Assembly (NCBI GenBank): GCA_019661785.1
Contig: JAIFWP010000002.1
Span: 39,059-103,058, forward strand
Origin: Candidatus Parcubacteria bacterium
GTDB lineage: Bacteria > Patescibacteriota > Minisyncoccia > Phycocordibacterales > Zambryskibacteraceae
Direction of reading: 5' to 3'
DNA length: 64,000 bases
Made by a program: the position numbers and the translations under genes. Below, in pieces: positions 34,155-57,690 of this stretch. The notes under the pieces are model-generated. The model saw nothing but the letters and a program-made list of their open reading frames with translations. It searched no databases and was not told the DNA's origin. The first letter of the stretch is position 1, and every line of letters starts with the position of its first letter.

Positions 34155-34868
34155 ATGTCGTATTTGTACCACCACTTCCTTGTTGCTCCGATATATAACG
34201 TATTGGTCTGGCTTCTCAATGTACTCCCCTTCTCCGATGCGGGGCTCGCTATCATCATCATCACAATCCTCGTCCGCCTTATCCTATTCCCGCTTTCGAA
34301 GAAGGCCGTGACCGCTCAAGTGGAAATGCAAAGAATAGCTCCCGAGCTTGAGAATATAAAAACCAAGTACCAGGATGACCAGGAGGAGCAGGCCAGAAGA
34401 ACCTTGGCTTTGTATAAAGAGAGAGGAGTGAACCCCTTCTCCGGCATTCTTGTGCTCGTGATACAGCTCCCAGTCATCTTCGCTCTTTACAGAATCTTTT
34501 TGTACACCGGTTTTCCGAAGATAGACTCGACCATGCTCTATACCTTCATCCATGTGCCAGCACAGGTGAGCTCAGTCTTCCTTGGGCTAGACCTGACAGA
34601 GAAGAGCGCTATCCTTGCTTTGCTCGCGGCTGTTGCCACTTTCTTCCAGATACGCTTGGCTACAGTTAATCTGCCAAAGAAGAGCGGCAAGTCTTCGTTC
34701 GGAGATGATCTCGCAAAGAATATGCAAGCTCAGATGAAATACTTTCTCCCGGTGCTTGTCTTCTTCATCGCTTATAAGATTTCAGGAGTCATTGCTCTCT
34801 ACTGGCTTACCACAAACCTATTTACCATCGGCCAAGAGATAGTCGTGCGAAGGAAGCTTAAGGTATGA
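34155..34868 (+). CDS. yidC: Membrane protein insertase YidC (short Oxa1-like form)
   Basis: A 237-aa protein with 5 TM helices and conserved YidC core helices. It occupies the rnpA-yidC position. Confidence 0.7.
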   Translation: MSYLYHHFLVAPIYNVLVWLLNVLPFSDAGLAIIIITILVRLILFPLSKKAVTAQVEMQRIAPELENIKTKYQDDQEEQARRTLALYKERGVNPFSGILVLVIQLPVIFALYRIFLYTGFPKIDSTMLYTFIHVPAQVSSVFLGLDLTEKSAILALLAAVATFFQIRLATVNLPKKSGKSSFGDDLAKNMQAQMKYFLPVLVFFIAYKISGVIALYWLTTNLFTIGQEIVVRRKLKV

Positions 34869-36084
34869 GCTTAAGAGCCCAGAGGGAGAGGTCGGATTTA
34901 TTTATAAAGAAGAGGTAATCCTCGCTAGGGCTTAGGAACGGCTTCTCTACATCTATGTCGGTATGGAAGTCAGTGCTTGGGTCCGCTAAAACATCTGTCG
35001 AGTTTGTTGTCACATCTATCCTCCACACTCTATCGGCGAAGCTAGTTAGGCCCTTGTACCACAAGTCAGGCTGACCACTTGGGAATCCGCCGCTCGGCGC
35101 GCCGCAGTAGACAGTGGAGGAGGACTTCACGCTCCAGGCGCACTTCTCTGGCAAGGTGTTTGGGAATAAGGTGGTCGAAGCTTTCGATGAGAGGTTCAAT
35201 ATAGAAAACGTGTTCGACCCATCACTCTCGTAGGCAAAGAGCGCCCGCTTGCCGTCTGGGGAGAGGTTTGCAGTGAGTCCTAGGAGAGGGCCAAGTACCT
35301 TTGTCATAGCGCCGGTCGAGAGATTCAAGGTATAAGCATATCCTAGGGCTTGCTCGGAGGCCTTGGTATAAATGAGAGCCGTTGAGGCATTTACAGGCAC
35401 AAGGCGCCAGTTAGTGAACGGCATCGTGAAAAGGGTTTTGGGCTTCTCCCCGAGGAAGCTAGACAGGGCTAGAGCGCCTGTGTCATCGAGGACATACAAG
35501 AGATTGCCGTTAGGCATCACGGCAAGTTCGTCCACGCTGCCGCGGAGCAAGGTTGCTGTCTCGGTGTATAAGTTTGATGTAGAGGTGGACTTCGGGGCTA
35601 TAAGAGTGATAGATGCGTTCTTCACTACATCATGCCCCTCGTCGAGTGAGCGAGCCACAAAGCCGGATGCATCGCCTTTCCACAGCGCCTCATATACCTT
35701 TGGTATAGTCGTGTTCGCTATCTGCTGCTTCTCAAGAGTGGCAAGGTTTATTTCAAGTACATGTCCTGTGGCGCGGTCGACGTAGCGCACAAACGTGAGG
35801 CCGTTCTTCGCAAAGCTCACGCTGCCTGCTACCGGGGCGTCCGAGAGTTTGAAGAGCTTGGCCAGAGGCTTGCCATCTGCTCCCAAGCCGGTTTGTGTCC
35901 CATCGTCATCATTTGAACCATCATTTGTCACAGGATTGCTAGAGCCATCAGGAGATGTGCCGAATGGCAGACTATTGATGATAGTCGATACGACTGGGGA
36001 CTTGCCGCCCAAGAGGAAGTACAAGACAGCCGTACCGGCAATGAGGACTAGAGGTATAGAAATGAATAGGGCTCGTCGGGACAT
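34858..36084 (-). CDS. Membrane-anchored PD40/TolB-like beta-propeller protein (last gene of T4SS-like operon)
   Basis: An N-terminal TM segment followed by repeated PD40-like motifs (SPDGKRALFAYESDGS, MPNGNLLYVLDD). Confidence 0.45.
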   Translation of the reverse strand: MSRRALFISIPLVLIAGTAVLYFLLGGKSPVVSTIINSLPFGTSPDGSSNPVTNDGSNDDDGTQTGLGADGKPLAKLFKLSDAPVAGSVSFAKNGLTFVRYVDRATGHVLEINLATLEKQQIANTTIPKVYEALWKGDASGFVARSLDEGHDVVKNASITLIAPKSTSTSNLYTETATLLRGSVDELAVMPNGNLLYVLDDTGALALSSFLGEKPKTLFTMPFTNWRLVPVNASTALIYTKASEQALGYAYTLNLSTGAMTKVLGPLLGLTANLSPDGKRALFAYESDGSNTFSILNLSSKASTTLFPNTLPEKCAWSVKSSSTVYCGAPSGGFPSGQPDLWYKGLTSFADRVWRIDVTTNSTDVLADPSTDFHTDIDVEKPFLSPSEDYLFFINKSDLSLWALKLIP

Positions 36085-36085
36085 G

Positions 36086-36988
36086 TTAGATTCTTACTCT
36101 TATGCCTTCAGGGATATTGCCGAAGCAAGTGAATTTGCTTTTGTAGCTCGCCAGCTTGGCGCTAGTCATAAATGAGTTATAACGAGAGCTATTGCAAATG
36201 AGGTGATATTGAAAGTCGACATTGCCTGTGACCTGAAGGTCTCTTAGGAATCTTGCTACCTGAGTCTCAGTCGTATCTGGCGTAAGGCTAATGTCAATAC
36301 AGCTTCCAGCTTGAGACAAGTCTTTTGTGTTACAAACAGTCAATGGCGTTGTAGATGTGGCAAAAGGAAAGGCCGCGCTTATCTCCCATGGGACGGCCAC
36401 ATACTCTCCTTTGGCATCGTCTATCGCGTCACGGACAACACTCACTTTAGACCAGAAGGCCAAGAGCCGATCATTCAAGGTTTTCTGTACGTAACACGGG
36501 TTATTGGTGCAGGCGTTTGAGTCTATCGGGATTATCGCTGCGATGGGCACGCAATTATTGGTGCAGCCTAATTCGGCCGCAGTTTTAGTTGCTAGGCTTC
36601 CCTTGATTGCCTGGCCTTGCTTGACTGGCTGCAGGGCAAACTGGATATTAACTAGGCCTGGATTCACTGTATTAAGTATCGTGTAGGCGCTTATGGCCAA
36701 AAGCAGCCCGATGAGAGCGTTTTGTATAGTCTCTTTGGCGGAGGATTTGCCGCTGAAGGCATCTGTCGACATGTACTGTATGCCGCCAATGATAATGCGT
36801 ATGACTGCCAATCCGCCAGCGATAGCGATGATGAGCTTTATCATGGCCGGGATGTACGTGCTCACATCTATAGAGCCGACTATGTCCCCGCCTTTTCCTA
36901 GGGGAAGTTTTTCAAGGAGGGTGTAATCAGCCGCGTGGAGATGTGTGATAAGGAAGGAGAGCATGTTAGAAGCTGTTCTGCTTGCCAA
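36086..36988 (-). CDS. VirB2/TrbC-like pilin fused to a Cys-rich C-terminal domain
   Basis: The N-terminal ~115 aa form two hydrophobic helices (MIKLIIAIAGGLAVIRIIIGGIQYM...ALIGLLLAISAYTILNTVNP), as in TrbC/VirB2 pilins. A 180-aa domain with 12 Cys follows. Confidence 0.4.
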   Translation of the reverse strand: MASRTASNMLSFLITHLHAADYTLLEKLPLGKGGDIVGSIDVSTYIPAMIKLIIAIAGGLAVIRIIIGGIQYMSTDAFSGKSSAKETIQNALIGLLLAISAYTILNTVNPGLVNIQFALQPVKQGQAIKGSLATKTAAELGCTNNCVPIAAIIPIDSNACTNNPCYVQKTLNDRLLAFWSKVSVVRDAIDDAKGEYVAVPWEISAAFPFATSTTPLTVCNTKDLSQAGSCIDISLTPDTTETQVARFLRDLQVTGNVDFQYHLICNSSRYNSFMTSAKLASYKSKFTCFGNIPEGIRVRI

Positions 36989-37712
36989 ATTGTACCAGGA
37001 AACTCTTGTCGAGCGGCTGCACGAGGGCAGATTTGTTCCTTGCCTCCACTGTTACCCTAGAGCTGCCGCTCGAGTTGTCTGGTATGCGGTAGGTGACCTT
37101 GTTGCCTGAGCGGTCGTCGCTCCCGCTTGCGAGCCATCGGTATGTCTCAGCCGGAGCAGTGCGGCTTGATACGCCAGAGAAGAACGGTAGGGCTGAGAAG
37201 GAGACCTCTTGTCCGCCGAGGTCGAAGCTTTCCCCTATGGCACGGTGAAGCATGAGCCCATAGAGAGGGCTATCTTCAACAACTAGAGTCTCTGAGGTCG
37301 TTGGGATGAGGCTCACCGAAGCGCTGCCTACATCTGTTTGTCCGTCTGGCAACGTGACGTCGACTCGAACTTCGGTTGGGAGAGAGAGGACAGAGTCATT
37401 CCATGAGAGGGTCCTCCTCCCTGCTCCAGAGCTGTTGCCGAGCACGGTACCGCCTTGAGTCCATTTATATATAAGAGCGTTGGGGTTAGTGTTTCCGCTC
37501 ACCACAGCCACCAAAGTTATCCTGGTCTGGTGCCCCCATAAAGCACGTCCAAGGTAGAAGGGAGGAGTGTAAGTCTCTCCTTGCCAGAGGATGTCCACCT
37601 TGGTTGGCGCTGGCAGAGTCTGTGCGGATGCTCCCACTGGCAGAATCAAAGTCAAAAAAAAGAGATGAGGGAGCAGAGCTCTTCGAAATGTCATCTGTCT
37701 ATTATATACCAA
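36966..37712 (-). CDS. Secreted hypothetical protein (signal peptide) in T4SS-like operon
   Basis: A 248-aa protein with an N-terminal signal peptide (LTLILPVGASAQ), a beta-rich sequence, and no known family. Confidence 0.4.
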   Translation of the reverse strand: MVYNRQMTFRRALLPHLFFLTLILPVGASAQTLPAPTKVDILWQGETYTPPFYLGRALWGHQTRITLVAVVSGNTNPNALIYKWTQGGTVLGNSSGAGRRTLSWNDSVLSLPTEVRVDVTLPDGQTDVGSASVSLIPTTSETLVVEDSPLYGLMLHRAIGESFDLGGQEVSFSALPFFSGVSSRTAPAETYRWLASGSDDRSGNKVTYRIPDNSSGSSRVTVEARNKSALVQPLDKSFLVQFGKQNSF

Positions 37713-38067
37713 CAGTTTTCTTGATTTTGTAGTCTAGGGCTATCCGAGCGATAAGACCGGTCCAGACAGGAAGATCGCCCAAGAATGGGATTAATTTTAT
37801 GACGACACTGGCGCCGATTAGCTTGCCCCTTCTTGCTGTGAAGAAGTCGAGACCCTTCAGTTTGAACCAAAGCCAGAAAGTAAAGATAGCCACTGGCGGT
37901 ACAAGCAGCCATCCGAGGAAGATAAAATCCAAAAGAGCTTGCATTGCGTCGAAAAACAAAGCCACAGCTATCATGAAAGCAATAGTTTTGTTGTCGAGCT
38001 CGGGCTGTTTTTTGGACTCAGGCTCTGTTGGCGGTTGCGGTGCTTGTTGCTGTGGTTGCGGCGGCAT
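37702..38067 (-). CDS. Small 3-TM membrane protein with Pro/Gln-rich N-terminus, immediately downstream of VirB4
   Basis: A 121-aa ORF. It overlaps the VirB4 stop by 50 nt. Confidence 0.35.
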   Translation of the reverse strand: MPPQPQQQAPQPPTEPESKKQPELDNKTIAFMIAVALFFDAMQALLDFIFLGWLLVPPVAIFTFWLWFKLKGLDFFTARRGKLIGASVVIKLIPFLGDLPVWTGLIARIALDYKIKKTVGI

Positions 38068-39889
38068 TTGGTTCCTTAGACTCCTCTAATTCTAACTTGG
38101 CTTTCTTCATGGCGAGGACCTGGCCTGGGTCTGAGGTGATGATCTGGTCCTCGGTATAGCTTGCAATGACCTTAATGGCCACATGCTTCAATCCGGCAAA
38201 GAAGATACCCTCCCCCACATCAGACTCGAGGAGGAGATACTTCTCTTCGTCGGTGAGGTTAAAGGTCTTCTGCAAGTTGTCGATAGTGGTCGGCGACTGC
38301 TTCAGGAGTATTTGGATGGAGGAGTTTGTGATGATAGGCAGACCATAAGGCGATTTCAAGAAGTCGCCTACGTCTTGAGTGATGGTGGCGACGCCCAAGT
38401 AGTACTTGCGTCCGCGCTTCACGAGGCCGGTGAGGAAGCTCGCTGTGTCGTCCGACTTCATCATCCACCAGGCCTCGTCGATGACGAGGAGGCGCTTCTT
38501 CAGCTCTCTTCTCACGGCATTCCAGATGAAGTGGGTGACGATGTACATGGCTATGGGCTTCAACTCATCTTCCATATCGCGGAGCGAGAAGACAACGAGC
38601 TTCTTCGATATGTCGACATTTGTCGGTCTGTTTATGAATCCTGACCAAGTGCCCTTGGTGTACTTTGTAAGGCGTTGGGCTAAGGACTCCCCTCCCTCAA
38701 GGCCGGTGAGCACGAGCTCGAAGTCGCTCATGAGAGGCGGCTCTATAGAGCGGAAGTCAGAGTCGGCAGTGATGTCTTTAAGAGCATAGGTCTCAGTGAT
38801 GGCGCGGTCGATGAGAGCATCTTCCTCGGCGGTGAGTCCGCCCATCATGAGGCGGAAGAGGCCCACGAGGTTAATGATGTTCGAGCGCAAGACATTTGCC
38901 GGGTCTTCGTCTGCTACTGGTATCGGAAGGTCGAAGGGGTTGATGTGGTGCTCGGAGTTTAAGGAAATCTTGAAGTACCTGCCGCCCACGACCTCGGCCA
39001 TGTACTCGTACTCGTTTTCTGGGTCCATAATCATGACATCTGTGTCGAACATGAGTGTTCTCAAGATTTCGAGCTTGGTGAGGTAGCTCTTGCCGGCACC
39101 GGACTTAGCAAAGGTGACGGAGTTGTAGTTCTCAAGACTGAATCGGTCGAAGAGCACGAGCGAGGAGTTGTGCCTGTTCACTCCGTAGAGGATGCCCTTG
39201 TCGCTCGTGAGGTCAAAGGAGGTGAATGGGAAGAGCGAAGAGAGCGGTGATGAATTTAACTTCTGGTGCACGCCCAGGAGGTCGTCACCAAGTGGCAGAG
39301 TCGACTTGTAGCCCTGCTCTTGTTGGAAGAGAGCCGGCTTCACATAGACGAGCTTGGCCTCGAGGATGCCCTTGATCTCGTTCTCGATTTTGTCGAGCTC
39401 AAGCTCGGAGTCGGCGTAGATAGTTATATAGAGCCCAACGTCGAAGAGCTTTTCCTGTGCTTGCTGGAGCTGGTCGCGCAAGTTCTCCAGGTCTTGGTAG
39501 GCCACATCGAGCATTGGATCGCGCACTAAGCCCTTGTCCTCTCTCTCGTGAATCTGCGATTCTACCTCGGCCACCTTCTTTTGGAACTGGTGCAGTATCT
39601 TAGACGTCTCGATAGGATGCACGAAGATAGCCACGTCGAAGACCTTGTCCATATTGAGTACCGGCGAGAACCACTCTTCGGAGAGGAAGCGCGGATAAGA
39701 GATGACGAAGAAGCTCCTAAGTATCTTCTCACCCAGGTCGAGTCCTCGGGGAGAGATTTTCAATGCTGAGGGGGCGATAATGTCTTTCAATTCCAATGCT
39801 CCGGCCTGGTAAACCTCAGCTGGCAGGATAGAAGCGAGATTTGGCTTCTCTTCCTTCTTCCTTCCTAATAATGTGTCGAAGAGTCCCAT
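38018..39889 (-). CDS. virB4: VirB4/TraE-family type IV secretion ATPase (Gram-positive type), C-terminal 623-aa part
   Basis: Carries RSFFVISYPRFLSEEW (the TraE/TcpF-type motif), Walker A FAKSGAGKSY, and Walker B LLVIDEAWWMM. Confidence 0.75.
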   Translation of the reverse strand: MGLFDTLLGRKKEEKPNLASILPAEVYQAGALELKDIIAPSALKISPRGLDLGEKILRSFFVISYPRFLSEEWFSPVLNMDKVFDVAIFVHPIETSKILHQFQKKVAEVESQIHEREDKGLVRDPMLDVAYQDLENLRDQLQQAQEKLFDVGLYITIYADSELELDKIENEIKGILEAKLVYVKPALFQQEQGYKSTLPLGDDLLGVHQKLNSSPLSSLFPFTSFDLTSDKGILYGVNRHNSSLVLFDRFSLENYNSVTFAKSGAGKSYLTKLEILRTLMFDTDVMIMDPENEYEYMAEVVGGRYFKISLNSEHHINPFDLPIPVADEDPANVLRSNIINLVGLFRLMMGGLTAEEDALIDRAITETYALKDITADSDFRSIEPPLMSDFELVLTGLEGGESLAQRLTKYTKGTWSGFINRPTNVDISKKLVVFSLRDMEDELKPIAMYIVTHFIWNAVRRELKKRLLVIDEAWWMMKSDDTASFLTGLVKRGRKYYLGVATITQDVGDFLKSPYGLPIITNSSIQILLKQSPTTIDNLQKTFNLTDEEKYLLLESDVGEGIFFAGLKHVAIKVIASYTEDQIITSDPGQVLAMKKAKLELEESKEPNAAATTATSTATANRA

Positions 39890-39890
39890 A

Positions 39891-40532
39891 TTACTTTTTT
39901 ACTAGAGCTTTCTCTGTCTCGCCTGGGTTGAAGGCTTTATAAAACAGCTCTATCACTTCGTCAGTGCCGAGCCTTGCCACTCGTATGCCAGTGCGCACTA
40001 GCCCCTGCTCAACGATAGCCAGGCGTTCCTCGAGCTGGGTACGAGCTTCCTCGAAGCCGGAGGTCTTCTCCCCTGCCTTATCCTTAGAGCTTTTCTTGCC
40101 GAGGAAGGAGGTCAGAGCGCCGACCTTCTCCCCTGAGATGGCACCCGGGTTATAGGAGACTACTACAAAGAAGTTCTTGGTCATAATGTTAGTCGACTCG
40201 GTGAAGCTCCTTATGAACTCTATATACTCCCTGGTCTGGATTTTCATAAGGTCTACTTGCTGCTCCTTCTCCTGCTTCTCAAGGAGAGCGAGATAGGGGC
40301 GGATGTCGAGTTTTCTCGATTGGATGACGATTTGGACCGAGAAGTCGAGCGAATTGAGGAAGTCTTGGAACTGGAGGAGAATAGCGTTCTTCTCATCCTC
40401 GGATTTGAGGGAGAAGTTCAAGGACGAGGCCAAGAGGATGCCTCGCATGCCGCCATCCTTCTCTAAGATGATGCCGTCGCGGACTTCTTTGATAGGAACG
40501 AAAGATTGAGTCGAGCTTGAACTCGGTGCCAT
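39891..40532 (-). CDS. VirB4 N-terminal-domain-like protein (separate ORF)
   Basis: FVPIKEVRDGIILEKDGGMRGILLASSLNFSLKSEDEKNAILLQFQDFLNSL resembles the extreme N-terminus of Gram-positive VirB4/TraE proteins. The ORF ends in a TAA-n-ATG junction with the ATPase ORF. Confidence 0.4.
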   Translation of the reverse strand: MAPSSSSTQSFVPIKEVRDGIILEKDGGMRGILLASSLNFSLKSEDEKNAILLQFQDFLNSLDFSVQIVIQSRKLDIRPYLALLEKQEKEQQVDLMKIQTREYIEFIRSFTESTNIMTKNFFVVVSYNPGAISGEKVGALTSFLGKKSSKDKAGEKTSGFEEARTQLEERLAIVEQGLVRTGIRVARLGTDEVIELFYKAFNPGETEKALVKK

Positions 40533-40539
40533 GAGTAAA

Positions 40540-40977
40540 TTATACAGTATCTTTGGTCTGATCTTTTGTAATGGGGTTCGACTGATTCTTCACATCGAGC
40601 TCGAAGGTGAGGTCACGGAGCTTTGACTGTGACAGCTTGGGCACGTATACCTGGTCGTAAGGTTTGCCGGCCGGATCATCAGCCTTCCCCTTAGTCTCTT
40701 CACTCCGCTTCCATATATATAGTCTGCCGCCCACGTAGTACTTAAAGAAATCTTCAATGATGAGGGCGAAGGGGCGCTCGTTGACCTTGAAGAAGGCTAG
40801 GGCCAAGCCTAGACCGGCTACAGGCAGGGAGAGGATGATGGCTATGAACTTGGGCAAAAGGGTGAAGAGGACCGCGCACAAGCCCGCCGCTCCGGCGAGG
40901 TAGACGAACTGCTTGAAGGTCAAAGGGCCGAATATCTTGTCCTCCACCTCAATGTATTGTGGTACTTGGAAGCGCAT
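40540..40977 (-). CDS. PrgI-like (VirB3-analogue) small membrane protein
   Basis: MRFQVPQYIEVEDKIFGPLTFKQFVYLAGAAG followed by two TM helices matches the PrgI-family N-terminal signature. Confidence 0.45.
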   Translation of the reverse strand: MRFQVPQYIEVEDKIFGPLTFKQFVYLAGAAGLCAVLFTLLPKFIAIILSLPVAGLGLALAFFKVNERPFALIIEDFFKYYVGGRLYIWKRSEETKGKADDPAGKPYDQVYVPKLSQSKLRDLTFELDVKNQSNPITKDQTKDTV

Positions 40978-40978
40978 G

Positions 40979-41620
40979 TTAGTTGGTGGGCTCTCTATAT
41001 GGATCTAAGCCGCCAGGGTACTTCGAACTTTGGCTTGGGCTTGCGACGACCTGGGTCAGTTTCTCTGTTATAAAATCCTTCGGCTTATCGGCCGGCATGC
41101 TTGGCAAGTTGGCGGGAGCAAGAGAGGTCTTTGACGCATTCATCACAGGAGGCTCGAGCTTGAGCTCTTGAGGAGGGGCCTCAAGTGGGATGCGATTTAC
41201 AGAAGGCGCGCTCGCCCCGCTCTGCTCGACGACAACTCTCGGAGCAATCTCCTGTGTAGCCGGCTTAGTATCTGGCATGCTCTGCAAAGTCTCATCGGTT
41301 TTCTGTGCTAATTCAGTCGCTTTGGCTAATATGACTGCAAAGACTTTATCCTCAATCTCTTTGGCAAGGGTCACCGCTTTAGACATATCGATGCCGAGCT
41401 CTCTAGCAATATTAGCTGCGAAGTTATCATCGCTATCGAAGCTATAGATGATGAGCATCGTCTCAGTTTCAAGGCTATCGGCCTTGGCTTCATCCAGCCC
41501 ATTCATTATCGAGATGCCTCGAGTGAGCTTGCGCCAAGGAGTGAGTGAAATGGCTCTCTGCACTGGCTGAGGCAAGGTCTTGAATTGCTCTTGTATTAAC
41601 TTGTCTGTGTCTTGCTCCAT
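40979..41620 (-). CDS. Hypothetical cytoplasmic protein in T4SS-like operon
   Basis: The ORF track starts at 41698 and overlaps the upstream gene. Met27 (41620) is preferred, giving a helical N-terminal half and a Pro/Ala/Ser-rich C-terminal half. Confidence 0.35.
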   Translation of the reverse strand: MEQDTDKLIQEQFKTLPQPVQRAISLTPWRKLTRGISIMNGLDEAKADSLETETMLIIYSFDSDDNFAANIARELGIDMSKAVTLAKEIEDKVFAVILAKATELAQKTDETLQSMPDTKPATQEIAPRVVVEQSGASAPSVNRIPLEAPPQELKLEPPVMNASKTSLAPANLPSMPADKPKDFITEKLTQVVASPSQSSKYPGGLDPYREPTN

Positions 41621-41621
41621 A

Positions 41622-43664
41622 TTATGGCGTTGGTGTTGCTGGCGGCGGCACTCCTCCTCCAGTTGGCGGAGTTGCTGGCGTGGCAGGGGCTCCCGCATCT
41701 TCTGCGGCTTGTCCAGCTTTGTTTAACTCCTCGGCCAATTTGTCAGCTGGCTTCTTATCCTTTGCTTTTTTACGTATAGCTATTGCTCCGGCCAGGTTCT
41801 CTCTCTTTACTGGACCGAATATGAGTACGCGGCCGGTTGTATCAAAGCCCACATATCTGTTGCCCATGCCGAAGGTCTTCTGCTCCTCAATCTCTTTGGC
41901 GTAGGCTTCCGCCCTGCTTCTTTGTGCGCTTTTAACTTCCTCTGGCGCCCAGCCAATTCCTGCTGCCTTGGCCTGATCTTTGGCTTCTTTTTCGCTGAGG
42001 CCAGTTGCCTTGAGCCTCTCCACTTCGCGCGTCCTTTCTGTTTCCAGCCTGTCCATTTCAGCCTTAGAGCCCTTTTTATCAAAGCCGTTTTTAATAAGAT
42101 CTAATTGCTTTCTCTTGCGTGCCTCGTCTTCATTGACTCCCTTGAGATCGTCAACATCCTTCTGGGCAGCGGCTATCCTGATTGCGTTGCCAGTTTGCTT
42201 GGCCGCCTCGAGCTTTTTCTCCGCGTCAGAAATGACGATGTCAGACGGTTTGAAGTTCTCAGCAGCTTGCTCCGCGCCCTTGATCTTGTTCTTCAAGTCA
42301 GCAGCGAAGCCTCCCTTCTGAGCTTTGCCCGCATCAAGCGCTCCGCCAACTGGAGTCGCGCGCAGGTCGAAGCTCGATGCCGCCGTACCTCGGCCCGCAG
42401 CGAGAGTGTACTTAGCAAGCTTGGAGAAGCGAGATGAAGAGACGGCCGTTTTCTTCAGGGCCTCGCTGTCGGCTACTGCTTGACCGAGTCTGCCGACAGT
42501 ACCGCGATTGAAGCGCCCTGCCAGGCCAAGGCTTGTGCCTCCAGCCAGTCCAAGCGCTGCGCCAGTGAGCTTCTTTACCCCGCTTCCCGCTCGCTCGGCC
42601 CAGCTCTTCGAGACGATGAGCGAGACTATGAGGAAGGCGATGATGACTATGAAGTTGAGGAAGGTCGGCACGAGCCCCGCTTCGAAGTGGGCACTCGCTG
42701 CGCCGTTTGCCGCTGTTTTGACGGTTCCTGATAGGGCGGCGCTGAAGTCGCTCGGTGCCCCGTTCAGGTTCGCTTTTGTGATGCCTTGGATGACGACTAT
42801 AGATACCCAAGTGAGGAGGAAGTAGATAGGTGCAAAGAAGGCTTGTCCCAAGAGGGCGTCCCACCACTGTCCGCTATACTTCTTCACTCCGGGCAAAATA
42901 TTAGCGACAAAGGCTATTGGTGAAAGGATGAGGACAAAGATGAGCACGACGTAGCGTATGACGAACATGATACCTATAGCGAAGAAGATAAACGCCGAAA
43001 CTAGAAGGACGATAGAGGCCAGGATGCCCATGATGGAGAAATTTGATATATGCGATAATGCGCCGCCAGAGGCTTGCCAGAGAGTAGTGATACCCATGGG
43101 TTCGACGATAGCGTTTGATATGCCGCTTGAGAGGAAGTCAGCACCGGCACTAGGCGCTATAGCGCGGTAGAAGGTAAGGGCCAGCAGGTTCGATGCGTCG
43201 ATAATGACTTTGGTAAAAAATAGACTGAAGTTTATGAGTATGGCGGCTATAACTGTGCGCACGATAGTCTCGCGATAGTTCCCTTCCCCAAAGATGGTCA
43301 TAATGGCCGTGTAGAGGAGGACGAAGATGAATCCCATGTTGGCCACGTCGCGTATGACTCCCCAGGCCGTGTCGATGGCCGGCAAGTTGGCGAAGTTCTC
43401 CGCCATCTTTGTCACGGTGAAGTAGACTGCGGCATTGAGCGCCACGCCTCCGAGCATGGTGAGGAAGCTAGTTAGCTTCAAGAGCACGAGGACTAGCGGT
43501 GAGAGGATGGTGCCGATGAAGTCGAGCGTGACAAGGCCTGCGGCTTTGGCCCCAATGCTCGCGATGGCATCAGGGATAACGTTCTGGGCATGCGCTACAG
43601 GGACAAATCCAACTATGCTTATGGCGAGGACCAGGGCGGCGATGTATGGGGCGCTCTTTCTCAT
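41622..43664 (-). CDS. VirB6/TrbL-like polytopic membrane protein with long coiled-coil and Pro-rich tail
   Basis: A 680-aa protein with a signal peptide and at least 6 TM helices in its first 370 aa. A ~280-aa Lys/Glu/Ala-rich region follows, ending in PATPATPPTGGGVPPPATPTP. Confidence 0.45.
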   Translation of the reverse strand: MRKSAPYIAALVLAISIVGFVPVAHAQNVIPDAIASIGAKAAGLVTLDFIGTILSPLVLVLLKLTSFLTMLGGVALNAAVYFTVTKMAENFANLPAIDTAWGVIRDVANMGFIFVLLYTAIMTIFGEGNYRETIVRTVIAAILINFSLFFTKVIIDASNLLALTFYRAIAPSAGADFLSSGISNAIVEPMGITTLWQASGGALSHISNFSIMGILASIVLLVSAFIFFAIGIMFVIRYVVLIFVLILSPIAFVANILPGVKKYSGQWWDALLGQAFFAPIYFLLTWVSIVVIQGITKANLNGAPSDFSAALSGTVKTAANGAASAHFEAGLVPTFLNFIVIIAFLIVSLIVSKSWAERAGSGVKKLTGAALGLAGGTSLGLAGRFNRGTVGRLGQAVADSEALKKTAVSSSRFSKLAKYTLAAGRGTAASSFDLRATPVGGALDAGKAQKGGFAADLKNKIKGAEQAAENFKPSDIVISDAEKKLEAAKQTGNAIRIAAAQKDVDDLKGVNEDEARKRKQLDLIKNGFDKKGSKAEMDRLETERTREVERLKATGLSEKEAKDQAKAAGIGWAPEEVKSAQRSRAEAYAKEIEEQKTFGMGNRYVGFDTTGRVLIFGPVKRENLAGAIAIRKKAKDKKPADKLAEELNKAGQAAEDAGAPATPATPPTGGGVPPPATPTP

Positions 43665-45400
43665 GGGTTTGTTTCCTGAGTGCTGTCAGATACCTTAATA
43701 CTGCCGCAAGATACTGTGTCGATTGTATTTTGATCGGCATCTAGGGCTGATACGCTGGCCTTCTTGTCGCCCTCGCTAGTATATTTCAAAGCTAGGGTGT
43801 CAGAAGTAGCGTCGGAGCTGACATCGTCGCCCGACCATACGTACGAGGCGGTAGTGGTCGGTGCAGAGTTCACGGCCCATGTTACGAGAGCATTCGTATT
43901 AACGAAGGTCTTGTCTGGTGAGCAGGACAAGGCGATAGGCTGGCCATCGGGGTTGTTCACAGTGCCAATGCCGCGGTACTGGCACTTCTTTGCTATGCCT
44001 GGTACTGGGTCTCCGCCGAAGGATGAGATAGCGCATTTTACATTATTTTCAGCCGTACCAATATTATAAATACCGTTGGCGCCAAAACGTACCTGTTTTG
44101 TTCCGGGAAATGAGCATGTGCCGCCCTCGCTTGCACAGGTTATCCAGTTCGTGGATCCTTGGCCTTCCACCACGACACCTCTAGTCTGCCCGTAGTATGC
44201 GCATGTCTTAGGCACGACATTAAATTGAGCGGGCAGTTTGACAGCCCCGAAGACATCACTCGAACACTTGGCCCCATCAGTAAGAGTAAGCTCTATGTAA
44301 GTGCCGGCTGCCCCATAGCGCACCTTCTCCTCTCCGTCGAAGACGCACTGCTCGCCTTCCTTGGCGCAAGTAATCCATCCGAATTCAGGCATCTTCAAAG
44401 TAGATGAGTCCGCGCCAGCATTGAAGCTGTCGTTATACTTGCTGCTGAAGAGCCCCTTTGGACCGAAGACGTATCTCTGCAAGAGCCCGCTCGCGAAGGC
44501 TCCTACGAGCTGGTCTACCTGAGTCGCATTGACGAGCTTGTTCATGCCAGTTGGGAGAGTGTCATTGAGCTGCTTGGCGATGACAGAGCCAGGTGTGACA
44601 ACGTCGCCGTAGTCTAAGCAGGTTCCGGCAGGCTTATCGAGGTCGAATTTGCCGTAAGTGAAAGTGACATTCTCCTCTGGGACCACCCCATTCAGATAAT
44701 CCTCTATTACATCATCCGGTATCTTCGGATTCTTAGCCAAGCAGGGCTTGTAGCTTAGGAAGCCGCTGCTTATCTGCCTGTCTGTCTGAGCTAAGCCGAG
44801 CTCGTTCGCGAGCCTCGAGTCGATGTTTGACTTAATGTTGATATAAGAGCCGTATGGGTTGTTGTTGTCTTGCTGGGTCATATCGAACCAGGCTCCCCAT
44901 CCCCCGGCACTGAAGCTCTTGTAGAAGTCGGTAAGGTTCCTCCCTATCTGGTCGAAAGTACATTGGGGCTGGTATTCCTGCACATATTGCTGCACGAGCG
45001 AGAGCTTGATCTGAGCCTGGAAAGGCGAACACACGAAGCCTAAGTTGGAGCCGCTTATCGCGTCCGTAATAACTCCCTCGCCGATTTTGCCGAAGTATCT
45101 TTTCGGATTTGTCACATAGGCTGGGTTGCCCTCGAAGCCGGTATTGGCCCAGGTGATAGTCGACTTGACCATATTGTCGATAATCCTCCTTGCATAGACT
45201 TGCGCGGCGGCGTCGATAAGCCTCTTAGCCAGAGCCGCTACGTCCGTCGTGATAGAGGTGTCGACGATACCGAATATCGCTTGCGCCTTAGGCGCGAAGG
45301 CCGGGGCATAGAAGAAGCTTGCCACTGTGAGCATGAGCAAAGTCCCCAGGATCTTTCCGCTCACTTTTTCTGCAAAGTTTTTTGTAAGTTTAGAGTCCAT
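43661..45400 (-). CDS. Large secreted protein with duplicated 4-Cys ~75-aa modules
   Basis: A 579-aa protein with a signal/TM at its N-terminus. The modules WITCAKEGEQCVFDGEEKVRYGAAGTY...KC...KTCAYYG and WITCASEGGTCSFPGTKQVRFGANGIY...KC...KKCQYRG form a tandem repeat. Confidence 0.4.
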   Translation of the reverse strand: MDSKLTKNFAEKVSGKILGTLLMLTVASFFYAPAFAPKAQAIFGIVDTSITTDVAALAKRLIDAAAQVYARRIIDNMVKSTITWANTGFEGNPAYVTNPKRYFGKIGEGVITDAISGSNLGFVCSPFQAQIKLSLVQQYVQEYQPQCTFDQIGRNLTDFYKSFSAGGWGAWFDMTQQDNNNPYGSYINIKSNIDSRLANELGLAQTDRQISSGFLSYKPCLAKNPKIPDDVIEDYLNGVVPEENVTFTYGKFDLDKPAGTCLDYGDVVTPGSVIAKQLNDTLPTGMNKLVNATQVDQLVGAFASGLLQRYVFGPKGLFSSKYNDSFNAGADSSTLKMPEFGWITCAKEGEQCVFDGEEKVRYGAAGTYIELTLTDGAKCSSDVFGAVKLPAQFNVVPKTCAYYGQTRGVVVEGQGSTNWITCASEGGTCSFPGTKQVRFGANGIYNIGTAENNVKCAISSFGGDPVPGIAKKCQYRGIGTVNNPDGQPIALSCSPDKTFVNTNALVTWAVNSAPTTTASYVWSGDDVSSDATSDTLALKYTSEGDKKASVSALDADQNTIDTVSCGSIKVSDSTQETNP

Positions 45401-46142
45401 GGGCTTTTAAGATATTCCTCATGTCGGCGATGAGCGGGTCCTCTGCCTTGAGGTTCTCGTTGTACTTAGCCATGCCGGCGAAGGCGATTGTGGGATCCTT
45501 GTCTACCTGCGCGAGGGCCTTCAAGGCGGCCGTGTTCGAGAGGTACATGTTGGTGAGCTTCACATGGTCGTCGAGTATCGACGACGGAACAGCCATGCCG
45601 AGGAGCGCCTTGGATGCATGCTCGTACGCGGCGGCGAGCTTCAAAGATATGCCGGAGATGTCAGTGCCAGCGAGGCTCACTGCCGAGCCGCTATCAATCT
45701 TTGCTGCTGTGGCCATAGTCTCGTTCGTTAGGTCTGCCAAGGCATTGCCATAAGCTTTGAAGGCGCTCAAGCTATCGGGCACTATTTTTATGTCCGTAGC
45801 GTTTATAACTTTGGCCTGGGTAAGCGTTGGGAGGCTCTCTACGTACCTTGCCGCAAGGGCATTGATGTTCTCCTCAGTGGTTTGTCCGGTAGCGGCCAAG
45901 TTCATGTAGTCAGAGAGCATTTGTCTGCTGACAAGATCCGTAGTGCTGAGGTCCTCCTGCTTGGCTGGCAGAAGATCTGTAGAGCTTGCGGCCGCATAAG
46001 ATACGGCGGATCCGGAGCTTGGTGCTATGTCTATGGCTACTAGCACTGGAGGAGTCGACGACTCTGACCTGAAGCGGAGGAATCCGGCACCCAAAATGAG
46101 GAGGCCTGATAGGGAAAGAGCGGTCAAGATGCGAAATCGCAT
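45390..46142 (-). CDS. Secreted hypothetical protein, first gene of T4SS-like operon
   Basis: A 250-aa protein with a signal peptide and an alpha-helical sequence. It has no family assignment. Confidence 0.35.
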   Translation of the reverse strand: MRFRILTALSLSGLLILGAGFLRFRSESSTPPVLVAIDIAPSSGSAVSYAAASSTDLLPAKQEDLSTTDLVSRQMLSDYMNLAATGQTTEENINALAARYVESLPTLTQAKVINATDIKIVPDSLSAFKAYGNALADLTNETMATAAKIDSGSAVSLAGTDISGISLKLAAAYEHASKALLGMAVPSSILDDHVKLTNMYLSNTAALKALAQVDKDPTIAFAGMAKYNENLKAEDPLIADMRNILKAHGL

Positions 46143-46184
46143 ATTAACCCAAATTATATCAGAGATATATAGGCCCTTTGTCCT

Positions 46185-46991
46185 TTATACACACAAAATC
46201 TGCGCCAGTTTGCCCCAGGTTAAGAGCTGCACATCCTCGGCGCGCGCATTCTCATCCAAACCGAGTTTCGCAAACGCTTGAAGGACCGAATCTTTGGGGT
46301 AAATCCTGGCTAAGTTTGAAGAAAGCTTCTTCCTCTTCGAACTAAAGCCAGCATGGAGCATTTGGAAGAACTCTGGCTCAGTAAAGCCGTTAAAGAAGTC
46401 TTTAGAGATGTTTTCTATAAGCAAAATAGACGAGTCGACCTTAGGAGCGGGGGTAAATGAGCCTGCTTTGACAGTCTCTACGTACTTTGGCTTGCCATAA
46501 CACTTCACAGACAGAGATAGGATGCTCTCCTTGTCATCTCTGCCTTTTTCTCTAGTCACTATCCTTTCTGCCACTTCCTTTTGCACAAGGAGCACCACCC
46601 TCTCAGGCTCGTACTCGGCGCTTAAGAACTTCTCAAGTATCGCGCCAGTGATGTTGTATGGAATGTTCGCAACAAGTTTATAAGTTAGGTCTTTGTAGAA
46701 CCTTAAGACCTCAGGGTCGAAGTCGAGTATGTCGCCATGTATTAAATCAAGTTTGCCTTGAGCAATCTCATCTTTGAATCTTCCACTCAGTTCCTCGTGT
46801 AATGCATCATCTTTTTCTACCGCTATCACTTTAGCGGCAAAGGTGAGAAGGATTTTGGTGAGCACTCCCTCGCCTGGGCCGATTTCCAATATCAAATCAT
46901 CGCCCTTAGGGTCAGAGGCATCTCGTATGGAGCTAAGAGCCCTTTCACTTCGCAAAAAGTGCTGCCCCAGTGATTTTTTGGCATATACCAT
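46185..46991 (-). CDS. rsmA: 16S rRNA (adenine1518/1519-N6)-dimethyltransferase RsmA/KsgA
   Basis: Carries QHFL, the SAM-binding motif LEIGPGEGVLT, and NIPYNI. Confidence 0.85.
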   Translation of the reverse strand: MVYAKKSLGQHFLRSERALSSIRDASDPKGDDLILEIGPGEGVLTKILLTFAAKVIAVEKDDALHEELSGRFKDEIAQGKLDLIHGDILDFDPEVLRFYKDLTYKLVANIPYNITGAILEKFLSAEYEPERVVLLVQKEVAERIVTREKGRDDKESILSLSVKCYGKPKYVETVKAGSFTPAPKVDSSILLIENISKDFFNGFTEPEFFQMLHAGFSSKRKKLSSNLARIYPKDSVLQAFAKLGLDENARAEDVQLLTWGKLAQILCV

Positions 46992-48969: not shown

Positions 48970-49007
48970 ATATTTAGGGCTATTATATCACACCTCTAAT
49001 TTTCTCC

Positions 49008-49035
49008 TTGACAAACTCATCTATTATGATATAAT
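49008..49035 (+). promoter_or_regulatory. Consensus sigma70 promoter of GC-rich lipoprotein gene
   Basis: TTGACA at 49008-49013 is separated by a 16-nt spacer from TATAAT at 49030-49035. A strong SD AGGAGGG follows at 49071-49077. Confidence 0.55.
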
Positions 49036-49081
49036 GGTAGAAGGACCGTTGTTTGGCAAATCACCATCTCAGGAGGGCCCC

Positions 49082-49855
49082 ATGAACATCCGTTTTCTCG
49101 CTGTTGCGTCACTTGCTCTACTCATCGCCGCCTGCTCCTCCAAGGAGCCCGCACCGATGTCGCAGGCCGCTCCCGTCGACTCTGTCGTTCCCTCCTCGGC
49201 ACCCGCCGTGGACTCCGCCAGGATCCGGCATGAGCGGGAAATCCGTTCCGAGTATGCCGATCTGATCCGCAAGGACAGCATCGCCGACGCTCCGGCAGTT
49301 CGCGAAATCGCCCTCGGCCTCAATGCAGAGCGCGCGTGGACTGGCCGCAGTTTCTGCCAGCGGTACGAGCGGACTCACAGGTGGGCACGTCTCAGAAACG
49401 ACCTCGCTTCGTCGCCCGCCCTCGCAACATGGCTCCAGATCAGCCGGGAGGAGGTGCGGCGCCATTACATTGCCAACGTCAAAGCCATCGCACCGATGCT
49501 TCTCTCACAGGAGGGCAAGCGGTCATCCGAGTTTTTGGACAATTACTACATCTACTCGGAATGCGATGGAGAGATGCTCGACGTGATGGAAAAGGTGATG
49601 AGCTGGGTGCTCGATTCCGGACTCGAACCGGCGACTCTTGGCTTGACTCGTCAGGCTGTCCGCGCCAAAGCGGCCGGCATCTTCGCGAGAGAGGTCCGCG
49701 GCGCACTCAAGCAGGGCGACTACGGCCTCGTGAACTGCCACTGCGAGAGCTCGATTCCTTTTTATTTCGATGAGTACAAGTTTACTCGTCGGGAGCTCGG
49801 TTTTACCGAGAAGGAATGGTCGCTGACTCTGAATGACAGCACCAAGAAGTCCTGA
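49082..49855 (+). CDS. Hypothetical lipoprotein (GC-rich, foreign-looking)
   Basis: It starts MNIRFLAVASLALLIAAC, a lipobox. The ORF track begins at 48668 inside pcrA, so the internal ATG at 49082 is preferred. The gene has high G+C and CGG/CGC Arg codons, with no ATA codons. Confidence 0.55.
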   Translation: MNIRFLAVASLALLIAACSSKEPAPMSQAAPVDSVVPSSAPAVDSARIRHEREIRSEYADLIRKDSIADAPAVREIALGLNAERAWTGRSFCQRYERTHRWARLRNDLASSPALATWLQISREEVRRHYIANVKAIAPMLLSQEGKRSSEFLDNYYIYSECDGEMLDVMEKVMSWVLDSGLEPATLGLTRQAVRAKAAGIFAREVRGALKQGDYGLVNCHCESSIPFYFDEYKFTRRELGFTEKEWSLTLNDSTKKS

Positions 49856-49873
49856 GCGCATCGCTCAGGCATA

Positions 49874-49910
49874 GGGTCCAGGAACTACACGTTCCTGGAC
49901 CCTTTCTCAT
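49874..49910 (+). terminator. Rho-independent terminator
   Basis: A perfect 12-bp stem gggtccaggaac / gttcctggaccc with a tacac loop, followed by TTTCTCATTGTTTATT. Confidence 0.7.
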
Positions 49911-50098: not shown

Positions 50099-51112
50099 TT
50101 GGTCTCTATTGTAGGGGCGGCTGAGGCTCGAGCTCAGGGGGACAAATTCGCGAAGCTCCCCAATATCATCACGAGCCAGACCTCGCAGACTATGCCTCTC
50201 CTTGAGGCTCATTTGAACTATAACCCCGTAGCCTCGGCTGGAGGCAAGCTCGCCGTCGTCGACAATAGCGCCCTAGAGCCTCTTACCATAGACAGCGGGG
50301 ACACCTTCGCCGATGCGGGGCAGAACGGAGGCCAGATCTCGACATACATAGTTAAGGAGGGCGATACCCTATCGAGCATCGCCAAGCTCTTCGGCGTCTC
50401 GCAGAACACCATCGTCTGGGCGAACAATGTGAAGGGCGGGCGCATCACTCCTGGCCAAGAGCTCGTCATCTTGCCGATCTCCGGCGTGCGCCACACTGTG
50501 GTTAGAGGTGACACCATCGCTACTCTCGCCAAGAAGTACAATGCCGATGTAGGCGACATCCTTTCATACAACGGTTTGGCCTCTGATGCCAAGCTTACAG
50601 CAGGCGACATCATCATAGTCCCCGATGGTGAAATAGGTTCGATACCAAGCACTCCTGCCGGCAGCAAGCCGGGCGTGTGCGGCATCAAAGTCTCTACTTA
50701 CGAACGACTCCTGGTTAACCCTTGTAGCCTCCCTTCCTATCCTGGCTACTTTGCGAGACCTCTTGCCGGAGGCATCAAATCTCAGGACCTCCATGGCTAT
50801 AACGCTATAGACTTTGCGGTTCCACAGGGCACGCCTATCATGGCGGCTGCAGCTGGTACTGTTATCGTCTCCCGCACTGGCGGATACAACGGCGGCTACG
50901 GCACGTATGTAGTTATAAGCCATCCTAACGGTACCCAGACTCTCTATGCTCACATGAGCGTTAACGGCATGACTCTGGGTCAGAAGGTCACTCAAGGCCA
51001 GGTTATCGGTGCTATTGGTTCGACTGGCAAGTCTACCGGCGCCCATCTCCACATCGAAGTCCGCGGCGCCCATCTCCACATCGAAGTCCGCGGCGCCAAG
51101 AATCCGTTCTAA
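50099..51112 (+). CDS. LysM-domain M23-family peptidoglycan endopeptidase
   Basis: It has two LysM repeats (YIVKEGDTLSSIAKLFGV, HTVVRGDTIATLAKKY) and an M23 domain with HxxxD, ending in HLHIEVR. The annotated start is TTG. Confidence 0.7.
   Translation: MVSIVGAAEARAQGDKFAKLPNIITSQTSQTMPLLEAHLNYNPVASAGGKLAVVDNSALEPLTIDSGDTFADAGQNGGQISTYIVKEGDTLSSIAKLFGVSQNTIVWANNVKGGRITPGQELVILPISGVRHTVVRGDTIATLAKKYNADVGDILSYNGLASDAKLTAGDIIIVPDGEIGSIPSTPAGSKPGVCGIKVSTYERLLVNPCSLPSYPGYFARPLAGGIKSQDLHGYNAIDFAVPQGTPIMAAAAGTVIVSRTGGYNGGYGTYVVISHPNGTQTLYAHMSVNGMTLGQKVTQGQVIGAIGSTGKSTGAHLHIEVRGAHLHIEVRGAKNPF
51038..51097. repeat. Perfect 27-bp tandem duplication (2 copies plus 6 nt) inside M23 peptidase gene
   Basis: ggcgcccatctccacatcgaagtccgc occurs at 51038-51064 and again at 51065-51091. 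This encodes GAHLHIEVR twice, in frame. Confidence 0.85.
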
Positions 51113-56943: not shown

Positions 56944-56955
56944 TATAGTGACTAT

Positions 56956-57690
56956 ATGGAGAAAAACCAATTTTTCGATATAAACAAGCTCCCGCCAGAG
57001 AAGGGTCTTCTTCTTTTCGGCCTTTCGATGAATAAACTTTTCAATCGGCAAAGTCCAGAGAATTGTCTTGAGGATATAAGACACTTCACGCCTTCCAAAG
57101 TTTCTAAGCCCCTGATTGGACTCAATTTTATTTACAGCGATTTTCTCTATCTCTACAGCGACGAGCCAGCACCGGAACTGAAGAACACATTCATGAGCGA
57201 GGTTATTGCTCATCGTAATGGCGTGCAAAAAATTATTGAGAAAAACCATCTTGAGTTTCAAATCCAACATGCTTTCAATTACATCGTATGGAGCCAGCTT
57301 TATGTAGGAACAAAGAATTTCAATCAGCTGTTCATCTCACTCAAGAAGATTTACGCCGAAGACTCGCTATTTCAGAAATACATAAACGAGGATTGCCAAA
57401 GATATGGTCGAGAAATGGAAGATAACCAAGTCAACTTCTTCCTCGAAGAGATACTTATGATGTATCTATTGACTAAAAACCAAGTGAAACTCCCTAACGA
57501 ATACATAGAAGGACAGCAGAAATGGATTCTCTTCTGTTACCCAGGCCGTCCGCTCAAGAGCACTGTCTATATGTACCAGCTAAATCCCTTTAATCTTGAT
57601 TGGTCGGAGAACCAATATCAAAATAGCCATTTTGATTTAGAAGCTAAGCAGCTCATAGACTTCAACAGGGTCGACCTAGAGACGTACTAG
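56956..57690 (+). CDS. Hypothetical 244-aa protein, markedly low G+C
   Basis: G+C is roughly 40% against the ~52% background. It is rich in Asn/Tyr/Phe/Gln, has no TM or signal peptide, and lies directly 3' of xerC. Confidence 0.4.
   Translation: MEKNQFFDINKLPPEKGLLLFGLSMNKLFNRQSPENCLEDIRHFTPSKVSKPLIGLNFIYSDFLYLYSDEPAPELKNTFMSEVIAHRNGVQKIIEKNHLEFQIQHAFNYIVWSQLYVGTKNFNQLFISLKKIYAEDSLFQKYINEDCQRYGREMEDNQVNFFLEEILMMYLLTKNQVKLPNEYIEGQQKWILFCYPGRPLKSTVYMYQLNPFNLDWSENQYQNSHFDLEAKQLIDFNRVDLETY

Follow-up and report, generated by a model that had tools for sequence, protein, structure and literature searches.

A relaxase-free type IV secretion system operon beside dnaA in a Parcubacteria genome, with a probable host-directed role

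In the 64,000-nt stretch of Candidatus Parcubacteria bacterium DNA analysed here (GenBank assembly GCA_019661785.1, contig JAIFWP010000002.1, positions 39,059 to 103,058 of the forward strand; hereafter the window), an operon of eleven minus-strand genes at 34858-46142 very likely encodes a vertically inherited chromosomal type IV secretion system (T4SS) of the Paceibacteria/Parcubacteria with a non-conjugative, host-directed role. This degree of confidence covers the identity of the system and the non-conjugative, host-directed role, and the direction of transport lies outside it. The operon stands beside the replication origin of an ultrasmall bacterium of the Patescibacteria (Parcubacteria). 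Much of bacterial diversity belongs to the Patescibacteria, which appear to depend on other cells for their living, and the T4SS is the leading candidate for the machine by which they obtain what they require. Systems of this kind are already known from papers published between 2023 and 2025, and the locus is a correct rediscovery of one of them; it represents no new kind of system but a clean and complete Paceibacteria example. What is added here is a protein family, represented by the product of gene g10, that carries swappable adhesin modules, together with a pattern of conservation in which the core of the machine is more conserved than DnaA and the exposed parts diverge rapidly. The remaining interest of the locus lies in the accessory genes without assignment and in the possibility that the g10 family is a VirB5-like adhesin family.

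The open reading frame (ORF) listing of the window places all eleven genes at the positions given in Table 1, co-oriented and tightly packed, as an earlier note on this DNA had described them, with junctions ranging from a gap of 7 nt to overlaps of 4-77 nt. The 77-nt overlap is formed by a 239-aa ORF for g08 (40979-41698) that runs over g09, and it vanishes if g08 starts at its second ATG (41620, codon 27), which lies 1 nt after the g09 stop and is likely the true start because alignments with homologues begin at approximately residues 27-30. Relatives of the g05 ATPase were sought in one genome per species; 588 were found, and all locus counts given here refer to the best 80 of them (L001-L080). 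These 80 proteins are 76-88% identical to g05, and all come from metagenome-assembled genomes classified as Parcubacteria, Paceibacteria, Zambryskibacteria, Taylorbacteria, or generic Patescibacteria, although the records of some relatives carry the label 'uncultured Saccharibacteria'. Each of the eleven genes has a syntenic homologue in other genomes, so they are real genes and not chance ORFs. The 680-aa and 579-aa proteins (g09 and g10) are deposited verbatim as the hypothetical proteins KW800_01010 and KW800_01015 of Candidatus Parcubacteria bacterium. Beyond yidC, which flanks the operon on one side, lie rnpA, dnaA, and dnaN, and beyond rsmA, on the other side, lies a UvrD/PcrA helicase gene.

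Table 1. Positions of the operon genes, the neighbouring genes, and other features in the window.
Feature	Position	Strand	Description
g01	34858..36084	-	Last gene; 408 aa; N-terminal membrane anchor, low-complexity linker, probable TolB-like beta-propeller
g02	36086..36988	-	300 aa; VirB2-like T4SS pilin domain (aa ~40-110) and variable Cys-containing C-terminal domain (~190 aa)
g03	36966..37712	-	248 aa; secreted protein with beta-sandwich (Ig-like) domains
g04	37702..38067	-	121 aa; small membrane protein, 2-3 hydrophobic helices, Pro/Gln-rich N-terminus
g05	38018..39889	-	623 aa; VirB4-family ATPase (middle and C-terminal ATPase domains), T4SS hallmark
g06	39891..40532	-	213 aa; TrsD-like free-standing VirB4 N-terminal domain
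g07	40540..40977	-	145 aa; PrgI family (VirB3 equivalent), two-helix membrane hairpin
g08	40979..41620	-	~213 aa; small helical domain and low-complexity tail, no transmembrane segment
g09	41622..43664	-	680 aa; VirB6/TrbL-like channel subunit, signal peptide and ~6 transmembrane helices
g10	43661..45400	-	579 aa; candidate VirB5-like surface adhesin, signal/anchor
g11	45390..46142	-	First gene; 250 aa; N-terminal membrane anchor/signal peptide and extracytoplasmic Ala/Leu-rich domain
yidC	34155-34868		One flank; convergent with the operon, 11-nt overlap
rsmA (ksgA)	46185-46991		Other flank; 42 nt upstream of g11
dnaA	32222-33571	-	~1.3 kb from the operon
Lipoprotein gene (probable)	49008-49903	+	Start ~49080, ends 49855; motif LIAAC
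Surface protein gene	15403-18645	-	1,080 aa; Ser/Thr-rich

The components of the cytoplasmic motor and the inner-membrane core identify the system. The g05 protein scores 369.5 bits against the NCBIfam model conju_CD1110 (cut-off 325; model positions 184-733) and matches Pfam P-loop_TraG (9.2e-26); its Walker A motif (AKSGAGKS, read from the sequence) and Walker B motif (LLVIDE) are both intact, and there is also a weak partial match to CedB (E 1e-8). Directly upstream, at a distance of 1 nt, g06 encodes a protein that matches positions 101-234 of the Mbov_0397 VirB4 model (NCBIfam; mycoplasma VirB4 N-terminus; E 3e-12), positions 2-120 of the CD1110 VirB4 model, and TrsD/TraD (E 7.5e-5, NCBIfam). 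The earlier note had counted this 213-aa gene as part of the operon but had missed its identity as a TrsD-like VirB4 N-terminal domain. A reading of g06 and g05 as a VirB4 pseudogene split by a frameshift was rejected, since the two are separate ORFs in 78 of the 80 loci, each from a different species, and correspond to a known TrsD arrangement (PMC12102498). The g07 protein, with transmembrane segments at residues 24-42 and 44-62, reaches 42.2 bits against Pfam PrgI (gathering score 27) and has counterparts in 75 of the 80 loci. For g09, whose 280-aa tail is charged, rich in Ala, Lys, and Glu, and Pro-rich at its end, the window protein has no Pfam match and Pfam TrbL is touched by only two of 41 orthologues, although relatives carry precomputed PF19590/PF04610 annotations. 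A profile of the g09 orthologues likewise returned nothing useful from PDB sequences apart from coiled-coil noise from the tail. However, when an AlphaFold model of residues 1-420 (pLDDT 80, pTM 0.72) was compared by Foldseek with 350,542 PDB chains, the top six were all TrwI/VirB6 chains of the R388 TrwJ/TrwI (VirB5/VirB6) stalk (E 2.6e-3 to 4.2e-2, probability 1.0, TM-score 0.42-0.47 when normalised to target length). This fold support is moderate but specific, and it points to g09 as a VirB6-like channel subunit.

The pilin assignment of g02 draws largely on its relatives. The window protein scores 24.9 bits against Pfam T4SS_pilin, just below the gathering score of 26.6, and matches TrbC weakly, whereas 49 of 51 syntenic orthologues match T4SS_pilin (best E 3.8e-12). 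The conserved part makes up only ~35% of the length of g02, and an orthologue profile compared with PDB sequences yielded nothing useful. In the g02 orthologues (L001-L076), a variable domain of 100-400 aa is attached on the C-terminal side of the pilin domain. In single orthologues it is an SLT transglycosylase or a Peptidase_M15_4 domain; these cases hint that a wall-cutting activity may sometimes be attached to the pilin-like protein. Overall, the VirB4-type ATPase, PrgI-like protein, VirB6/TrbL-like channel, and VirB2/TrbC-like pilin proposed in the earlier note all stand, whereas its statement that most components are without a characterised homologue was too strong: five of the eleven correspond to named T4SS components, as does, probably, a sixth. 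Six of the eleven genes encode lineage-specific envelope or accessory proteins.

The genes of the region differ widely in their conservation. Across the loci, the median identity is 79% for VirB4, 62% for TrsD, 60% for DnaA, 55% for UvrD, 50% for PrgI, and 44% for DnaN, whereas it is 25-32% for g09, g10, g01, g03, and g11. VirB4 ranks first in conservation among the genes of the region in all 52 loci where dnaA is present as well. A strongly constrained cytoplasmic motor combined with fast-evolving exposed parts would fit an indispensable machine that touches a changing partner, and from the conservation of VirB4 above that of DnaA we infer that the operon may be needed for host-dependent growth.

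The setting of the operon is chromosomal and not that of a mobile element. The other species examined repeat the gene order uvrD-rsmA-(g11...g01)-yidC-rnpA-dnaA-dnaN; both flanks are present in 39 loci, and the arrangement recurs in at least 39 other Paceibacteria species, in agreement with the placement of the operon between yidC and rsmA in core chromosome by the earlier note. Its description of the codon usage as host-like also proved accurate, with a G+C content at third codon positions of 0.625 in the operon against 0.630 in the rest of the window, and a correlation of relative synonymous codon usage with the rest of the window of r 0.92, within the range of the controls (mean 0.94, 5th percentile 0.90). 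No relaxase or VirD4-type coupling protein was found among the ORFs of the window (ORF inventory and Pfam scans), as the note had also reported; the same is true of oriT, for which no separate search was made. Its claim that the window shows no integrase holds for mobile-element integrases, but the window does contain a single Phage_integrase-family gene (56014-56943), located 10 kb from the operon. The product of this gene aligns end to end with XerD, XerC, and XerA models, and by this alignment the tyrosine recombinase is a XerD-type housekeeping enzyme and not a mobile-element integrase. The operon borders show no direct repeats beyond chance 14-20-mers, and neither border has a tRNA gene.

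These observations bear on whether the operon could instead be an integrated conjugative element, or the remnant of one, whose relaxase and coupling protein are encoded outside the window, an explanation that is very improbable. VirB4, TrsD, PrgI, and VirB6 do have homologues in the conjugation apparatus carried by plasmids and integrative elements of Gram-positive bacteria, but a site next to dnaA that is identical in position and gene order in at least 39 species, codon usage that matches the host, and the lack of flanking repeats, a border tRNA gene, or an element-type integrase are difficult to reconcile with such an origin, and a VirB4 more conserved than DnaA is unlike a mobile-element gene. 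VirD4-like coupling-protein genes do occur in most Patescibacteria genomes, mostly far from virB4, and 109 relaxases were counted in 103 genomes; however, ~97% of the surveyed genomes lack relaxases (PMC12102498). The mobile-element reading was rejected given that the window shows no relaxase, VirD4, element integrase, att repeats, or compositional deviation, and that synteny stands against it. An integrated element is excluded for practical purposes by synteny, which is the most decisive, by composition, and by the lack of border features. Domain searches, fold match, synteny, and composition therefore agree with the earlier note that this is a domesticated T4SS, probably of an episymbiont, rather than a mobile element, and the same conclusion has been reached in published work (PMC12102498, PMC10633639, PMC12857230).

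Among the published systems, the closest counterpart is the T4SS of the Patescibacteria clade. In a survey of 3,035 Patescibacteria genomes, Quinonero-Coronel et al. (2025; PMC12102498) recovered a monophyletic VirB4 clade nested in MPF-FATA, the conjugation class of monoderms (Firmicutes, Actinobacteria, Tenericutes, Archaea), with adjacent TrsD, PrgI/VirB3, VirB6, and VirB2-like pilins and almost no relaxases. The T4SS was located near dnaA, dnaN, rnpA, ksgA, and rpmH in Paceibacteria and Microgenomatia, and the composition, relaxase-free state, and dnaA/dnaN/rnpA/ksgA setting were reported for 2,407 Patescibacteria assemblies (PMC12102498). The window system has the same VirB4, TrsD, PrgI/VirB3, VirB6, and VirB2-like pilin, comes from the same phylum, and shares the dnaA/dnaN/rnpA/ksgA setting without a nearby relaxase or coupling protein. 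There is no essential difference between the two, but the paper gives no account of the six accessory genes or of the VirB5-like candidate. Based on hidden Markov model scores, the MPF-FATA-type CD1110 model being the best, and on 76-88% identity to Paceibacteria proteins, g05 probably belongs to the Patescibacteria-specific VirB4 clade derived from MPF-FATA.

The T4SS of Southlakia epibionticum ML1 (Saccharimonadia; SEML1_0006-0019, with low locus-tag numbers; PMC10633639) is also of the monoderm type; it has pilin genes, and neither a relaxase nor a coupling protein can be recognised in its cluster. Essentiality has been determined experimentally for this member alone, by transposon sequencing, in which the T4SS cluster and pilins were essential and comEC was dispensable (Wang et al. 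2023; PMC10633639, PMC12857230). Southlakia has six divergent pilins and adjacent peptidase/lysozyme genes, whereas the operon in the window encodes a single pilin, extended far at its C-terminus, and no wall hydrolase; the closest gene for an M23/LysM peptidase is ~4 kb away (50099-51112). With the conjugative MPF-FATA systems (e.g., pGO1 Trs, pCF10 Prg, CTn2 of the CD1110 type), the window system shares a CD1110-family VirB4, TrsD (pGO1 subclass), PrgI, a VirB6/PrgH-type channel, and the lack of an outer-membrane core. However, the conjugative systems are borne on plasmids or elements, need a relaxase and coupling protein, have PrgB-type adhesins, and lack VirB2-like pilins, whereas the window system is chromosomal, has no relaxase in the window, and has a pilin. 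The likeness to the VirB stalk of R388 and Agrobacterium comprises the g09 fold (TrwI/VirB6), the VirB2-like pilin, and the gene order, as g10 lies directly upstream of g09 in the way that virB5 lies directly upstream of virB6. Unlike those systems, the operon shows no VirB7, VirB9, VirB10, or VirB11 among its eleven proteins or their orthologue sets (Pfam and NCBIfam), g09 has its 280-aa charged tail, and g10, a candidate for VirB5 homology only, is 2-5 times longer than VirB5 and carries adhesin modules.

The g10 protein consists of an N-terminal helical domain (~aa 40-325), two Cys-rich modules (~aa 338-475), and a C-terminal PKD/Ig-like domain, and it is conserved among orthologues over the first ~320 residues only. 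A profile of the N-terminal domain retrieved 5,909 clusters at 50% identity, 5,045 of them at E < 1e-10. The domain is N-terminal in every member of this family, in proteins that range from 235 to 1,247 aa, while the C-termini of the relatives carry Ig-like, InlB B-repeat, SdrD_B, PKD, fn3, and F5/8C (discoidin) modules; the Cys-rich modules are found on glycoside hydrolases as well. The AlphaFold model of g10 has a mean pLDDT of 71.6; at its C-terminus it matches domains of the PKD, intimin, and carbohydrate-binding kinds, and the N-terminal domain is modelled with too much uncertainty to judge whether it has a three-helix-bundle fold. Orthologue profiles of the full-length protein and of the N-terminal domain yielded nothing useful from PDB sequences. 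DUF4141 is matched by three of 46 and by five of 91 g10 relatives, two of them above the gathering score of 30 (33.0 and 32.5 bits), and models of TrbJ, the P-type VirB5, match relatives at E 1.2e-4 to 0.029. All of these matches are confined to residues ~10-58, which comprise the signal peptide and the beginning of the mature protein (AQW[IV]VxDPxN), and the window protein itself matches neither DUF4141 nor TrbJ in Pfam and NCBIfam. Proteins with DUF4141 are encoded next to traG and traJ in Bacteroides conjugative transposons, and the family corresponds to TraI of CTnDOT, which Guglielmini et al. consider homologous to VirB5 (PMC4027160). That g10 is a VirB5-like tip adhesin is thus a lead and not a finding, and it has perhaps one chance in three of being correct. 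No mention of the g10 family, or of a VirB5-like component of the Patescibacteria-clade system, was found in the literature searched. If g10 does sit at the tip of a T4SS filament, it would offer an experimental handle on host recognition and a means of predicting host range from genomes.

The hydrophobic segment of g11 covers residues 4-22, and syntenic homologues with 21-33% identity are present in 25 of the 80 loci; the protein has no Pfam or NCBIfam match. Homologues of g04 occur in 27 loci. Neither g04 nor g08 has a family match, and when their orthologues and those of g11 were scanned against Pfam, nothing informative was matched. The g03 protein, found in 70 of the 80 loci, has a signal-like segment at residues 12-30, and its orthologue profile weakly matches Hoc Ig domains in the PDB (E 8.7e-4). 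The g01 protein, found in 56 of the 80, has a transmembrane segment at residues 6-24 and no Pfam match; its orthologue profile matched only TolB chains in the PDB (best E 0.004), weak backing for the TolB-like propeller that the earlier note had named.

As a possible mechanism, by analogy with known systems, PrgI and the VirB6-like protein, in the single membrane, would be the docking site of the VirB4/TrsD motor, which would power the building of a VirB2-like tube or pilus through the wall. The exposed, host-contacting end would be formed by the Ig-like g03, the propeller g01, and g10, a possibly VirB5-like protein whose adhesin modules can be exchanged. The machine would be a host-contact conduit needed for the epibiotic lifestyle and not a conjugation apparatus, because no relaxase or coupling protein is encoded alongside it; conjugation as its use is scarcely credible. 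These organisms are unable to make nucleotides. The most probable use of the conduit may be the uptake of host macromolecules (nucleic acids), although the likelihood of this falls slightly short of even. Uptake is ranked first because the local lack of a coupling protein resembles the ComB and Ced systems, because of the lack of nucleotide synthesis, and because competence is dispensable where tested. Helicobacter pylori ComB and archaeal Ced are VirB4-driven importers without a relaxase or coupling protein, as in the window. However, ComB is a diderm VirB2-4/6-10 system and Ced uses CedA/A1/A2, so that component likeness to the window operon is limited to VirB4, and import is known for ComB and Ced but has been demonstrated for no Patescibacteria system. 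A 2025 review describes the Patescibacteria T4SSs as notable newcomers and speculates on an uptake conduit, whereas a 2024 perspective regards their role as completely unknown. In a cultivated relative, uptake of host RNA and putative T4SS tubes reaching the host have been reported (June 2026 preprint, bioRxiv 10.64898/2026.06.21.733656).

Two other uses compete with uptake. The T4SS could inject or secrete proteins into or onto the host bacterium, as the T4SSs of pathogens do, and this is possible but appreciably less probable than import. Effector translocation is the commonest non-conjugative role of T4SSs, and protein export was proposed by Wang et al. (2023) for Southlakia because the coupling protein and relaxase are lacking (PMC10633639). 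Effector-translocating systems usually need a VirD4 receptor, but protein export by the Ptl and Brucella systems needs no coupling protein (PMC12102498), and in the cultivated relative the host cytoplasm shrinks at attachment sites (bioRxiv 10.64898/2026.06.21.733656). On the other hand, Pfam and NCBIfam scans of the operon and its surroundings revealed nothing recognisable as an effector, a chaperone, or a secretion-signal protein, and all of the extra genes look like structural envelope proteins kept in synteny. A device for adhesion or pilus assembly, in which the VirB4 motor builds an adhesin-decorated VirB2-like filament and nothing is transported, is unlikely. The operon does contain a pilin, the adhesin modules of g10, the Ig-like g03, and the propeller g01, and rapid evolution of the exposed parts is consistent with adaptation to host range; yet type IV pili for adhesion and motility are already encoded (PilB and PilM in the window), and the retention of a VirB6 channel and an exceptionally conserved ATPase suggests translocation over mere growth of a filament.

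Several points weigh against a non-conjugative, host-directed T4SS as proposed here. The scan for a coupling protein and relaxase covered the 64-kb window, and either may be encoded elsewhere in the genome. Because the window pilin and VirB6 proteins fall under the Pfam thresholds, both are assigned largely through their orthologues and through a fold match of moderate strength. Neither a VirB8-like protein nor a wall hydrolase was identified among the products of the operon. What ties g10 to VirB5 is a stretch of ~40-45 residues at the N-terminus, signal peptide included, that matches in a few relatives but not in the window protein. Since the loci were picked by VirB4 similarity, the comparison of conservation is biased and the contrast between motor and exposed parts is inflated, although the gap is still large. 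Additionally, the sequence provides no evidence on the direction of transport or its substrate.

A bolder version of the uptake proposal, speculative and rather doubtful, is that the system is a hybrid in which an MPF-FATA ATPase and membrane chassis is combined with a Gram-negative-style VirB6 stalk and VirB2 tube, and in which a VirB5-like g10 tip, with host-range modules swapped between lineages, serves to draw in host nucleic acids. If this is true, an uptake needle would recognise the host through g10, g03, and g01 at its end, and host specificity across the Paceibacteria could be read from the g10 family as a marker.

Possible transcription signals were read by eye around the operon. The 42-nt gap before g11 (46143-46184, minus strand) contains an extended -10 motif, TGATATAAT, that ends 10 nt from the ATG. 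Together with TGTATAAT and TGTGATATAAT, this motif belongs to a set of extended -10 sequences located 7-14 nt 5' of the ATGs of g11, g06, and uvrD, respectively (minus strand, 46143-46184, 40533-40539, and 48970-49000), without a Shine-Dalgarno sequence. The arrangement suggests near-leaderless transcripts and a possible internal promoter ahead of the TrsD-VirB4 pair. A promoter and terminator scan of the region gave nothing above shuffled expectation.

Elsewhere in the window, genes for a type IV pilus (a PilM-like gene with two small neighbours, and a PilB/GspE ATPase) and for ComM are found at 7246-9150 (minus strand), 22507-24282 (plus strand), and 51762-53303 (minus strand), and their presence in the same 64 kb indicates a separate pilus and competence toolkit besides the T4SS. 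The LysM/M23 peptidase encoded at 50099-51112 could act as the wall hydrolase missing from the operon; its gene contains, close to the 3' end, a perfect 27-nt tandem duplication (51037-51090) that doubles the peptide GAHLHIEVR. At 56014-57690 on the plus strand, the XerD-type gene is followed by a 244-aa ORF that has no family match and a G+C content of 0.40, against 0.52 for the window, and that is possibly a small acquired gene. The probable lipoprotein gene is preceded by a perfect promoter, TTGACA and TGxTATAAT separated by 16 nt (49008-49035), and is followed by a terminator with a 13-bp stem (49873-49903). The 1,080-aa surface protein contains 93-nt tandem repeats in its gene (16871-17388, ~5.6 copies) and shows a weak match to the Peptidase_G2 intramolecular-chaperone domain, which is typical of phage tail spikes and fibres.

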